Of a DNA stretch of 25,079 bases, positions 3,261 to 6,120 are shown piece after piece; the first letter of the stretch is position 1; each line of letters begins with the position of its first letter. A model generated the notes under the pieces. That model did not search any database. It was not told the DNA's origin and saw nothing but the letters and a program-made list of their open reading frames with translations. Source of the DNA: a virus (taxonomy: Duplodnaviria > Heunggongvirae > Uroviricota > Caudoviricetes). The stretch is taken from positions 1 through 25,079 of the IMG/VR virus record IMGVR_UViG_2671180296_000013. One strand, given 5' to 3'. Both the position numbers and the translations under genes were made by a program.

Positions 3261-3606
3261 TCGGTTTATGCTCACCCCAGCATCCCCGACGAAGACAACA
3301 TCATCCAGCCCAGGGAAAGAAAAAGAGCAACCAGCATTAGTGAAAATGAAATGCCGACAATTACACAGAGGATCTTCGCCAGCGTTATGAGTTTGTCTGA
3401 TATCATTGGTCACCACTCCATCAATCCGTCTTTGTGATTTTTCCTTTGCCTGTATCAGCCAGGACAAAATCAATCAGCAGATTCGCTTCATTTATCAACG
3501 TGCGAATTTTTGATACATGTGCAGCTTTAACCGACTTCCACTCACTCAGTGTCAACGCCAAGATTATTGGCCGTTTTTCGCCATTTTTAATGTCCGCTAT
3601 TGGTCA

Positions 3607-4401
3607 TTAATGTTGTCCGCTTGCCGCCATTTCATCATCACTGATTGGCGTGGCGTTTTTTGCCAGCACTCCCGCTTTGCGTTTTTCCTTTAACCGGTAG
3701 CTTTCTCCTTTGATGTTCTGTGTGGTTGAGTGGTGTAGCAGTCGATCCAGGATTGCCGTTGCCAGCACGTTATCGCCGAACATCTCTCCCCAGTCGGCGA
3801 ACCCTTTATTTGACGTCAGCACGATGCTCGCTTTTTCATATCGACGGTTCAGCAACCGGAAGAACAGACTGGCTTCCTCGCGGGTCATCGGCAGATAGCC
3901 TATCTCATCCAGTATCAGTACCCGGGCATAACCAAGCTGCTGTAGCTGTTTTTCCAGCCGGTTTTCCTGTTTTGCCTTCATGAGTGTGGCGATCAGCTTA
4001 TCCAGTGGCATGAACAGCACCCGATGACCAGCGTCCGCCGCTTTTACCCCGAGAGCGACTGCCAGGTGCGTTTTACCCACACCAGGCGGACCCAGCAGGA
4101 TCACGTTCTCGCTACGCTCCACGAACGCCAGCCCGGCCAGCTCACGGACGACCTTACGATCGATACCTGGCTGGAAGCCGAAGTCGAACTGCTCCAGCGT
4201 TTTGACCCACGGGAAGCGGGCCTGTTTCAGCCGGGACTCCATACTGCGCTGATGCCTCCCGTTCCATTCCTGCTGCAACGCCATGCACAGGAACTCGCGG
4301 TAGTTCAGTTCTTTTTTGGCCGCCTGCTCCAGCAGGCTTTCAACGTGGTAGCCCAGATGTTCCATTTTAAGACGACCCAGCAGTGTCTCCAGTTCATGCA
4401 T
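3607..4401 (-). CDS. istB: IS21-family helper ATPase IstB
   Basis: 265-aa track ORF with Walker [10 protein letters not shown] and Walker B LLILDE; the ATG at 4401 overlaps the istA stop by one base (track start at 4404 is a GTG). Confidence 0.85.
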
Positions 4402-5573
4402 CACAACAGCTCCTCATAGGCACTCAACGGCCTGTGTTCCACCTGACTGACCTGCTGCCAGAGTGGGGCGTGATGCTCCGGCACGGTCTGCCAGCCGTAT
4501 ACAGCCGAACAGAGACGGTGCGATGCTACCTGTTGCTCATTACTGTAGATCCGCAGTTCATCATCCAGCGAGATCCGTATTGATACCGGCTGGCCACACA
4601 GGCTTTCCGGCACGCTGTAACGGTTCCCGCCAACCTCGATATAGCCATCCCAGGAGACATGACGGATATCGAAGTAGCTGGTATCGAAGTCCGTACCTGG
4701 CAGCGCCTGCAGATGCACCTGTTCCTGCGTGAAGCGCTGTTCCGGTGTCTGCCTGAACTGGCGAAGTTCCCGCCTGTCGGCAACGTCAGCCATCCACTGC
4801 TCCAGTAGCTGATTAACATGGGCGAAGCTGTCGAACCGGCGGTACCTGACGAAGAAGTTTTCCTTGAGGTATTTCACCATCCGTTCCACCTTACCTTTGG
4901 TTCTGGCCCTTCGTGGACGGCAGGCCCGTGGCAGGAAGCCATAGTGATCGGCCAGCAGCAGGAACCCGGAGTTGAACACCACCTTCCCGTTGTTATTTTT
5001 CAGCACTGCGGCTTTCTGGTTATCGACCAGCACGGTTTTCACGCTGCCGCCGAAGTAGCGAAAGGCGCGGACCAGTGACTCATAGGTATGTTCAGCATCC
5101 TGCTTTGGTGCCGCGAAGACATGGAAGCGACGTGAGAACCCCAGCGTATTAACCGCGAAGTTAACCCTGCATCGTTGCCCGGCAACCTCAGCCTCAACTT
5201 CTCCCCAGTCATGCTGTAGCTGGTAACCGGGCTGAGTTTCGAAGCGAACCGTTTTCTTCGATGGCCGCATCTTACGTTTGGGCTGGATGTAGTAACGCAA
5301 CATGGAACGGCCACCGGTATAACCCATCGCTTTGATTTCCGCCAGGATGACCTCGCCGTTCCAGACATTCTCAGCCAGACGCATGTCGATATAGTCCATG
5401 AACGGCTTGAGTTTGGCCATTTTGTGGCGTGTTTTTCTGGCCGGAGGTTCCGGGTATTTCAGGTACCGTCTGACAGTCCGCTCAGAGCAACCAACCTGAG
5501 TGGCAATATCAACAATATACGCACCTTGCTGGCGCATTTGCTTTATCATGTAAAAGTCCTCTCTGCTCAGCAT
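4401..5573 (-). CDS. istA: IS21-family transposase IstA
   Basis: 390-aa product with an N-terminal HTH ([19 protein letters not shown]) and integrase-like core, directly upstream of istB. Confidence 0.85.
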
Positions 5574-5646
5574 GAGTGTTCCCTTTGTGGTGTAGGAACC
5601 TTAAGGAAACAACATGTTGGGTGGAGCGGACAATCCAAATGGTGAA

Positions 5647-6120
5647 TTACTGTCTTATATCATTGGCGCTGACACTCAGCCCGGTACCAAACAAACTGGC
5701 GATGTTTTTATCCCGTTTCATGTCAGCGCATACCTGATTGAGTTCTTCCATCACGCTCATTCGACGGGGATTAACGACAAAACCCTTCGTCCAGTATTCA
5801 TAGAGAACATCGTCGCACTCTTCCTGATACTGAATGACCCTGTCGCGGATTTCAGGTTTAACTTTGTTGGGATTGATGGTTTGTAACCAGCCCGCAAGTT
5901 TTCGAAGTGGCAGGGATACCATATTGCGTCGTTTCCCATCCTCAGCAACCATAACGATTTCCGTTATAGTTGACGCAAAACGCTGTCTTAACTTATCCAA
6001 CTGTGATTGCCAGGCTAGCCCCATCCCCGCAACAACAGGCTTCATGGGAACGTATGGCTCGCCATTATGGTTAACCACATAAAGAGAGTTGCCGTGAAAC
6101 GGCACGGTCATCATATTCAT
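5647..6120 (-). CDS. Phage antirepressor-like protein (AntA-type N-terminal domain); last codons replaced by IS21 end sequence
   Basis: N-terminus MTVPFHGNSLYVVNHNGEPYVPMKPVVAGMGLAWQSQ fits the antirepressor N-domain pattern. With the IS removed and one CTCAG copy kept, the frame would end ...GTGLSVEVG; with the IS it ends ...GLSVSANDIRQ. Confidence 0.6.
   Translation of the reverse strand: MNMMTVPFHGNSLYVVNHNGEPYVPMKPVVAGMGLAWQSQLDKLRQRFASTITEIVMVAEDGKRRNMVSLPLRKLAGWLQTINPNKVKPEIRDRVIQYQEECDDVLYEYWTKGFVVNPRRMSVMEELNQVCADMKRDKNIASLFGTGLSVSANDIRQ

Follow-up and report, generated by a model that had tools for sequence, protein, structure and literature searches.

The window, by which we mean the whole 25,079 nt-long stretch of DNA analysed here (IMG/VR record IMGVR_UViG_2671180296_000013), carries on its minus strand, in this order, a Q-like gene, toxin genes, holins, an endolysin, an ant gene, Rz and the terminase. 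The upstream Q-like gene was recognised as DUF1133 with a Phage_antitermQ match, and the 44-codon ORF between ant and Rz (orf44) is annotated as WP_000622439.1 in two homologous loci (L001 and L002, the latter from E. coli ETEC1747). The ant gene is interrupted by an insertion sequence (IS) that is co-oriented with the late operon. Of a 7.3-kb query from the toxin/Q/paa side, more than 80% was matched by only two genomes, at 98.5% identity; for the terminase/Rz side, 19 genomes gave matches, at about 97.5%. The prophage is a mosaic. All the features are listed in Table 1.

Table 1. Features of the interrupted lysis region, in positions of the window.
Feature	Coordinates	Strand	Description	Basis
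Rz	2802..3260	(-)	152 aa; downstream of the IS	Pfam Phage_lysis, 3.7e-49
Rz1	2864-3049	(-)	61 aa, embedded in Rz	putative lipoprotein signal, from LVVSAC
orf44	3272..3406	(-)	44 aa, between ant and Rz; conserved	hydrophobic by inspection
Orphaned ant 3' remnant	3421..3543	(-)	40 codons (EWKSVKAAHV...GKITKTD) and stop	
Target-site duplication CTCAG, Rz-side copy	3545..3549	.		single CTCAG in the ETEC1747 empty site
ISEc62 (IS21 family), complete	3550..5674	(-)	2125 bp, 5'-TG...CA-3' tips	full-length matches
Right terminal inverted repeat (istB side)	3550..3625	(+)	TGTCAACGCCAAG...; TGTCCGC at 3591-3597 and 3614-3620 (+)	
istB	3607..4401	(-)	264-aa AAA+ helper ATPase	Pfam IstB_IS21, 1.4e-87
istA	4401..5573	(-)	390-aa DDE transposase, N-terminal HTH	Pfam rve, Mu-transpos_C_2, HTH
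Left terminal inverted repeat (istA side)	5600..5674	(-)	TGTCAGCGCCAATGATATAAGACAG...; inward TGTCCGC at 5626-5632 (-); -10-like TATAAG	
Target-site duplication CTCAG, ant-side copy	5675..5679	.		empty-site comparison
Chimeric ant' ORF, truncated	5647..6120	(-)	149 native and 8 IS-encoded codons (VSANDIRQ), stop inside the IS	
M15 endolysin	6332..6715	(-)	upstream of ant; M15 family metallopeptidase in L002	Pfam Peptidase_M15_4

The initial annotation had placed at 3543-5679 an insertion of the IS21 family whose 5-bp target duplication was intact. Both the family and the duplication were borne out by full-length matches, by the protein families and by the comparison with the empty site; the element is real, but its ends had been set too far out, the earlier range taking in the duplication and two extra bases on the left. 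A sequence search matched the element from position 1 to position 2125 in 867 E. coli records. Precisely, identity over this whole length was 99.9% for the copies of MFDS1019527 and MFDS1022581 and 98.4% for copies annotated by PGAP as ISEc62, such as that of E24377A, with 98.4-99.9% as the range for the PGAP-named copies, and the L003 copy differs from the present one by 3 nt, with no indels. The name ISEc62 is taken from this RefSeq (PGAP) annotation of near-identical copies and not from an ISfinder reference entry. In E24377A, TW10598, 510016 and many plasmids, ISEc62 has the same 2125 bp, the same tips, a 390-aa IstA and a 264-aa IstB; the present copy differs from these in its insertion site, in a handful of substitutions and in the length of its duplication, 5 bp instead of the 4 bp of most copies examined. 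Two papers were found in which ISEc62 appears, in both cases as a passing mention within plasmid annotations.

IS21 proper (annotated by PGAP as 'IS21-like element IS21 family', and present in phage fiAA91-ss) has the same gene order and sizes, a near-identical left repeat, TGTCCGC-type internal repeats and the TTGACA right tip, and its IstA and IstB match those of this element at 364/391 and 244/266 aligned positions, respectively. As its nucleotide identity to this element is about 86% and its length is 2130-2131 bp versus 2125 bp, the two are different named ISs of one family. In the collection of isolated phages ISEc62 was not found; only IS21 proper was, in the same phage fiAA91-ss.

Both ORFs are intact in this copy, in the istA-then-istB layout of the IS21 family, with the ATG of istB overlapping the stop codon of istA (ATGA). 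IstA scores 280 bits against NCBIfam NF033546 (IS21 family transposase; cut-off 160) and IstB 293 bits against NF038214 (cut-off 200), in agreement with the Pfam assignments. IstA is identical to that of L004 at 390/390 positions and to WP_000952431.1, a protein that bears the ISEc62 family name, and the translation of istB contains a Walker A (GPPGVGKT) and a Walker B (LILDE) motif. Since both ORFs and their motifs are intact and many near-identical copies are found at different sites, this copy is apparently active. The IstA N-terminus, MLSREDFYM, has methionines at both position 1 and position 9; in the IS21 family IstA has an alternative start 8 codons downstream (cointegrase). Residues 1-388 of IstA align, end to end, with IstA of IS5376 from Geobacillus stearothermophilus (PDB 8b4h, E 2e-82; see also 8q4d), and D122, D184 and E230 match D124, D187 and E233, the catalytic residues of the latter (PMC10122671), hence the DDE triad is conserved. 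IS5376, which belongs to a Gram-positive bacterium, is only distantly homologous, and its ends are unrelated in sequence to those of this element; its two-repeat terminal inverted repeats (TIRs), 3'-CA tip, IstB dependence and 5-bp duplications are those of this element's family (PMC10122671, PMC11208146).

The tips are TGTCA...TGACA, that is, the TG...CA ends typical of the family, and they belong to long TIRs, which are imperfect, as initially described: the match is 11/12 at the very tips and about 35 positions over the first 49, with similarity recognisable up to about 75 nt. Over 80 aligned nt the left end is nearly identical to that of IS21 proper. TGTCARCGCCAA, the motif at the tips, occurs far more often than expected by chance, with 3 matches (at most 1 mismatch) versus 0.29. 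The TGTCCGC motifs that had been noticed near both ends were recovered as two copies on the istB side, 42 and 65 nt from the tip, and one on the istA side, 43 nt from the other tip, all pointing inward and within 71 nt of an end. As a mere 7-mer TGTCCGC is not above chance across the whole window (5 found versus 2.95 expected), but we considered it meaningful because of its position, its orientation, the 23-bp spacing of the istB-side pair and its conservation in IS21 proper; terminal direct repeats 23 bp apart have been reported for IS21 (PMC10122671). TTGACA, the -35 consensus, is present at the right tip, facing outward on the minus strand, and TATAAG occupies positions 16-21 of the left repeat; for the IS21 family the right TIR has been described as holding a -35 box and the left one a -10 box (PMC10122671), and the comparison with this description also covers the L1/L2 and R1/R2 repeats. 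A hybrid outward promoter driving Rz, made of the TTGACA tip and a -10 in the flank, was looked for and rejected, the -10 matching only 3/6 positions at 17-19 nt and the promoter scan reporting nothing there. In the IS21 family the right-tip -35 and the left-repeat -10 form a promoter in tandem copies.

To what extent the flanking CTCAG copies are a target duplication was evaluated by comparison with uninterrupted sites. E. coli ETEC1747 carries the empty site, 80/80 nt identical and with one CTCAG only, and in 669/5426 complete E. coli genomes 80% or more of the reconstructed empty site is found at a single locus, as one uninterrupted piece in the best matches; an empty site exists in related prophages. 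As for known phages, the uninterrupted ant-orf44-Rz segment is matched in Stx1a phages at 90% identity and in porcine ETEC prophages at 98.6%; in Stx-converting and related lambdoid phages the ant-like gene is uninterrupted, whereas here it is broken after codon 149. The tips, TGTCAACGCC...GCGCTGACA, are shared by nine other ISEc62 copies, whose flanks are unrelated; a duplication of 4 bp is present in seven of them, of 5 bp in one and none in one. The 5-bp length is therefore a minority length among the copies examined (4 bp in 7/9); 5-bp duplications have been reported for numerous IS21-family members (PMC10122671, PMC11208146), and, compared with the empty site, the short duplication expected of the family is here the 5-bp CTCAG, the sister copies having 4 or 5 bp.

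The two CTCAG copies could instead be part of the TIRs, or the placement of the IS could be an assembly artefact, with no target duplication at all. In fact, CTCAG and its complement CTGAG differ solely at the central base, and because of this a repeat finder runs the inverted repeat on into the flanks (arms 3545-3561 and 5663-5679, 88% complementary); moreover, positions 1-1860 of the window contain many single-base indels resembling sequencing errors, terS/terL being affected, which makes sequence quality a concern in principle for the insertion as well. Against this, the nine other copies stop at identical tip bases while their flanks differ, so that CTCAG lies outside the terminal repeats, as first proposed, and the empty site holds a single CTCAG. 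The IS, its junctions and the segment 5673-10279 show no indels with respect to their relatives, and the junction is identical across independent assemblies; for the same reasons, the extra C of the 5-bp duplication was ruled out as a sequencing error. This explanation is already refuted, and we assign to it a negligible probability.

Full-length identity, proteins, duplication, empty site and repeat architecture all support the same reading, and no evidence contradicts the identification as ISEc62. Almost certainly, then, the ant-like gene of a lambdoid E. coli prophage that carries a pertussis-like toxin was the target of transposition by a single, complete and apparently active ISEc62, and this is an ordinary transposition event of an already catalogued IS. 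By analogy with the family, the DDE transposase IstA would bring the two multi-repeat TIRs together and cut at their 3'-CA ends, the AAA+ ATPase IstB would capture and bend the target DNA, and a strand transfer staggered by 5 bp, followed by repair, would produce the CTCAG duplication.

The consequences for Ant are larger than was initially stated, namely that only its last few residues are swapped. The insertion follows codon 149, and 40 of the 189 residues (21%) are lost, while 8 IS-encoded ones are gained; ORF11CD3 (Pfam), at residues 122-163 of the intact protein, is cut. The orphaned 3' remnant corresponds to the C-terminal end of the uninterrupted Ant (189 aa) found in ETEC1747 and, if the IS and one CTCAG are removed, the frame reads ...GTGLSEWKSVKAAHVSKIRTLINEANLLIDFVLADTGKGKITKTD*, giving 189 aa, equal in length and in C-terminal sequence to the annotated intact gene of ETEC1747. 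The reconstructed frame does not end in '...GLSVEVG', as had been proposed; this ending looks like an off-frame reading; VEVG occurs only in the out-of-frame part of the frameshifted homologue L001. Upstream of the insertion point, P22_AR_N is intact at residues 5-113 (E 2.9e-45 in the Pfam scan), and by this N-terminal domain the protein was assigned as a P22 Ant-like, putative antirepressor, although P22 Ant is a much longer protein and this one is encoded in the lysis cassette. For the truncated Ant the Pfam scan gives P22_AR_N alone, whereas the precomputed annotation lists ORF11CD3 too.

As regards the age of the insertion, at least 7 public contigs carry the identical junction and the exact 157-aa chimeric Ant, with 0-1 nt differences within the IS; they represent different samples and come from an NCBI assembly, from ENA metagenome assemblies and from Logan runs. 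In one of these (L016) the IS is identical and there are 20 SNPs, which cluster in the segments of Rz and of the toxin; this implies recombination after the insertion, or a transfer of the IS-bearing segment. The junction was absent from the 5426 complete RefSeq E. coli genomes, searched with a 601-bp probe across it, and from the GTDB representative genomes, searched with an exact 38-mer across it. Instead of being recent in the strict sense, the insertion may have been inherited and mark a prophage lineage, possibly having spread by recombination or phage transfer and not by transposition in this genome. The sharing of the exact chimera and junction by at least 7 contigs and the clustered SNPs of L016 favour this; the perfect duplication, the two intact ORFs, the 0-1 nt differences within the IS and the absence of the junction from RefSeq and GTDB genomes, versus 669 empty sites, go in the opposite direction, and we give it an even chance. 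It refines, and does not contradict, the transposition of ISEc62 into ant. On the scale of E. coli diversity the event is young, since the duplication is perfect, the ORFs are intact, the differences are 0-1 nt and the junction is absent where the empty site is found in 669 genomes. Set against how far ISEc62 copies have diverged from one another, the insertion is young as well. The term 'recent' of the initial annotation thus holds relative to the divergence of ISEc62 copies and to E. coli diversity; it does not hold if taken to mean private to this genome, the insertion being shared by a lineage.

The initial annotation had also noted that about 2.1 kb now separate endolysin and ant from Rz/Rz1, which is correct, 2125 bp lying between ant and orf44/Rz/Rz1, and had suggested that spanin expression could be uncoupled. 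The insertion would in this case be polar, cutting off Rz/Rz1, in fact all the downstream late genes, from the late promoter and so crippling lysis or particle production. The foreign DNA, with its own translation signals, the lack of a convincing hybrid outward promoter and a weak terminator-like hairpin on the minus strand (5537-5519) are in line with polarity. This hairpin, near the istA start, was the only one found by a terminator scan of the minus strand of the IS, which gave nothing at the istB end. Late transcription of lambdoid phages is antiterminated by Q, and the Q-modified polymerase passes terminators and withstands Rho polarity. Here a Q-like gene is upstream, the IS and the late operon point in the same way and 7 or more contigs have retained this insertion, a diverged prophage background included; such persistence, however, means no more than that the lysogen tolerates the insertion, and phage viability does not follow from it. 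Overall we consider a polar insertion improbable. In particular, spanin uncoupling by the IS looks unlikely, because the element is co-oriented with a Q-dependent late operon and has no terminator-like site at its downstream end; polarity, if any, would hit terminase and all the structural genes too, not the spanins alone. On induction, Q-antiterminated transcription would be expected to cross istA-istB into Rz/Rz1 and the terminase genes, with little polarity.

Because the IS lies co-oriented inside a Q-antiterminated late operon, induction may also lead to a burst in the expression of istA/istB and, provided that the phage is still viable, to packaging of the IS, coupling the transposition and the spread of ISEc62 to induction; we propose this as a conjecture with a small chance of being right.

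The insertion itself has little significance beyond annotation, being that of a catalogued IS acting as its family is known to act. In gene calling, the 157-aa 'Ant' has to be read as a chimera truncated by the IS, and it and the 40-codon remnant should be annotated together as one pseudogene. As a marker, the ant::ISEc62 junction is handy for one prophage lineage that carries the pertussis-like AB5 toxin and paa. Public data include lysogens of both kinds, the strain of GCA_020145685.1, for instance, having the insertion and ETEC1747 the empty site, and these can be used to ask if the Ant C-terminus or an unbroken cassette matters for induction and lysis.

Independent ISEc62 insertions, these too co-oriented, were observed in other lysis cassettes (L011 and L007). 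Together with the junction in the mosaic background of L016, they are compatible with an induction-coupled spread and are no demonstration of it.

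The inserted element is ISEc62, already catalogued in the IS21 family, with limits at 3550-5674, since this stretch was matched over its full length (1-2125 of the query) in 867 E. coli records and is 98.4% identical to many copies that PGAP names ISEc62, e.g. in E24377A. Identity to the copies in strains MFDS1019527 and MFDS1022581 is 99.9%, with 3 substitutions and 0 indels relative to the copy on pMFDS1019527, and the encoded IstA is identical to WP_000952431.1; IS21 proper, a distinct named element, is 86% identical. The initial annotation of an IS21-family insertion at 3543-5679 was therefore right about the family, here sharpened to ISEc62, with limits slightly too wide. 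This is a known element acting as known.

Features of the insertion and of its prophage context
Feature	Position	Strand	Remarks
Integrase	23844-25079		
Q-like gene	9036-9575		
Pertussis-like AB5 toxin genes	7427-8645	-	between Q-like gene and holins
CTCAG duplication	3545-3549 and 5675-5679		
TGTCCGC	3591 and 3614 (+), 5626-5632 (-)		all three inward-pointing
istA	5573-4401	-	390-aa ORF
istB	4401-3607	-	264-aa ORF; ATG overlaps istA stop
ant 3' remnant	3543-3421		40 codons, still present
Conserved hydrophobic ORF, 44 aa (MISDKLITLAKILCVIVG...)	3272-3406	-	between ant and Rz; hypothetical in relatives

The empty site was reconstructed by taking out the IS and one CTCAG, and the result was used as query. 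Sought in related genomes, it was found: at least 80% of it lay in one place in 669 of 5426 complete E. coli genomes, the best E. coli matches being single uninterrupted alignments, and Stx1a phages gave a 90% match. E. coli ETEC1747 agrees with the reconstruction at all 80 nt of a stretch that has the site at its centre, and this stretch has one CTCAG. Nine other ISEc62 copies have exactly the same tip bases and unrelated flanks, with duplications of 4 bp in seven (GAGT, CAGC, GTGG, TGCT, TTAC, CATA, CCTT), of 5 bp in one (GCGGT), and none in the one adjoining an IS1. Because the empty site has a single CTCAG and the flanks of the nine copies differ, CTCAG is target DNA and a true duplication, as first proposed, and the alternative that it is part of the terminal repeats was ruled out. 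The inverted-repeat call by the repeat finder covers CTCAG only because CTCAG/CTGAG is nearly palindromic. A length of 5 bp is the rarer one for ISEc62 in this small sample; 5-bp duplications have been reported for numerous IS21-family members (PMC10122671, PMC11208146).

Two other prophage lysis cassettes, at loci L011 (4145-6269, duplication CCTT) and L007, have independent ISEc62 insertions in their lysozyme gene, oriented as the lysis genes. Among the few insertions into genes that were sampled, the IS shares the orientation of the gene it disrupts in 5 of 7, a proportion that does not reach significance.

The terminal repeats are imperfect, as annotated: the tips, TGTCAACGCCAA at 3550 and TGTCAGCGCCAA at 5674 on the other strand (5'-TG...CA-3'), show 11/12 identity, and a weaker similarity between the two ends extends to about 75 nt. 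Repeated TGTCCGC motifs near both ends were likewise recovered, two on the istB side and one on the istA side. Their count in the whole window (5 found, 2.95 expected) is not above chance by itself, and it is their arrangement, together with conservation in IS21 proper, that carries the argument. The two istB-side copies are separated by 23 bp, a spacing also reported between the direct repeats (L1/L2 and R1/R2) that IstA requires for integration at the ends of IS21-family elements (PMC10122671). The istB-side tip reads TTGACA outward on the minus strand, and the istA-side repeat has TATAAG at positions 16-21; the placement of these putative boxes fits the published arrangement, in which the -35 of a right end and the -10 of a left end make up a strong promoter only where IS21 copies lie in tandem (PMC10122671).

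Two adjoining minus-strand genes (390 aa, then 264 aa) were present in the ORF list for the flagged region. The istA product has Pfam rve, Mu-transpos_C_2 and HTH matches and reaches 280 bits against the NCBIfam equivalog 'IS21 family transposase' (cut-off 160). It aligns end to end (E 2e-82) with IS5376 IstA, a solved structure (PDB 8b4h), and its D122, D184 and E230 align with the catalytic D124, D187 and E233 of that protein (residue numbers from PMC10122671). By sequence match, its N-terminus (MLSREDFYM) offers another Met 8 codons further on, the position at which the cointegrase isoform of IS21 IstA starts (PMC10122671). The istB product matches IstB_IS21 (1.4e-87) and the equivalog 'IS21-like element helper ATPase IstB', and Walker A (GPPGVGKT) and Walker B (LILDE) motifs are present.

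The interrupted gene codes for a P22_AR_N protein. Its restored frame reads ...GTGLSEWKSVKAAHVSKIRTLINEANLLIDFVLADTGKGKITKTD* and gives 189 aa, the length and C-terminal sequence being those of the intact annotated gene of ETEC1747; residues 122-163 of the intact Ant match a further Pfam domain, ORF11CD3 (30.2 bits, cut-off 25). The IS lies after codon 149, therefore Ant loses 40 of its 189 residues (21%), including the distal portion of ORF11CD3, and eight IS-encoded residues (VSANDIRQ) are appended before a stop at 5647-5649. This contradicts the initial annotation, in which only the last few residues were swapped and Ant ended ...GLSVEVG; that ending looks like an off-frame reading, VEVG having been found only in a homologue with a frameshift (L001), in the portion that is read out of frame.

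A perfect duplication, two intact IS ORFs, near-identity to other copies, and a junction present in 0 complete RefSeq E. coli genomes and 0 GTDB representative genomes argue for a young insertion. The initial annotation was right to call it recent, but it is not private to this genome: when the 157-aa chimeric Ant was looked up by exact sequence, at least 7 public contigs were returned, five of which were retrieved and compared. Only 1 of 9146 nt differs in GCA_020145685.1, and there are no differences over the 4645 nt compared in the ENA assembly ERZ28595861; the contigs of two Logan assemblies stop within the IS and are identical up to that point. An assembly artefact was ruled out by the identical junction in independent assemblies. 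In the metagenome contig ERZ27316997 the IS and junction are identical, with 20 SNPs grouped in the segments of Rz and the toxin genes, hence either recombination after insertion or transfer of an IS-bearing segment; this indicates mosaic recombination around a shared insertion.

Compared with its best relative (GB089 prophage), window 1-1860 has one substitution only, but single bases are inserted at 17 places, in most cases a surplus C, and there are two short deletions (2 bp, 1 bp). These indels disrupt the terS and terL frames and look more like errors of sequencing or assembly than like decay of the genes. No indels relative to relatives were present in 2927-3549, the IS or 5673-10279, so the IS finding is unaffected.

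The window is a lambdoid prophage, with recombination genes, cI/cro-like regulators and replication genes between the integrase and the Q-like gene. The late order after the latter is AB5 toxin genes, two holins, M15 endolysin, ant::ISEc62, the 44-aa ORF (no Pfam match), Rz/Rz1 and terminase, all on the minus strand, and the IS has the orientation of this operon. A scan of the minus strand within the IS gave only one weak hairpin near the istA start; at the istB end it detected nothing resembling a terminator, nor any promoter directed out of the IS toward Rz. Since late transcription in lambdoid phages is Q-antiterminated, it would be expected to read through the IS into Rz/Rz1 and the morphogenesis genes. 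Polarity that uncouples spanin expression, as had been suggested, is thus unlikely; a polar IS would silence far more than the spanins.

The toxin A subunit (241 aa) has Pertussis_S1 and Scabin-like matches, the annotation given to the B subunit in relatives is 'subtilase family AB5 toxin binding subunit', and the genes occupy the position of stx in Stx phages. The AcfC-family adhesin gene paa (11421-12179; SBP_bac_11 fold) lies in a moron region at 10900-12180 (-), which is bordered by a DUF1367 gene and by the replication genes; this region has an annotated hok-family toxin gene in two related prophages, L014 and L015, the latter a contig with the same ant::ISEc62 junction. Beside paa and a fimbrial pseudogene, TGTCAGCGCCATGATTTTTGACCGTTATCG at 12846-12875 (+), adjoined by no IS genes, closely resembles the inverted repeat at the right end of IS21 over its first ~30 nt and appears to be an isolated leftover of an IS21-type end.
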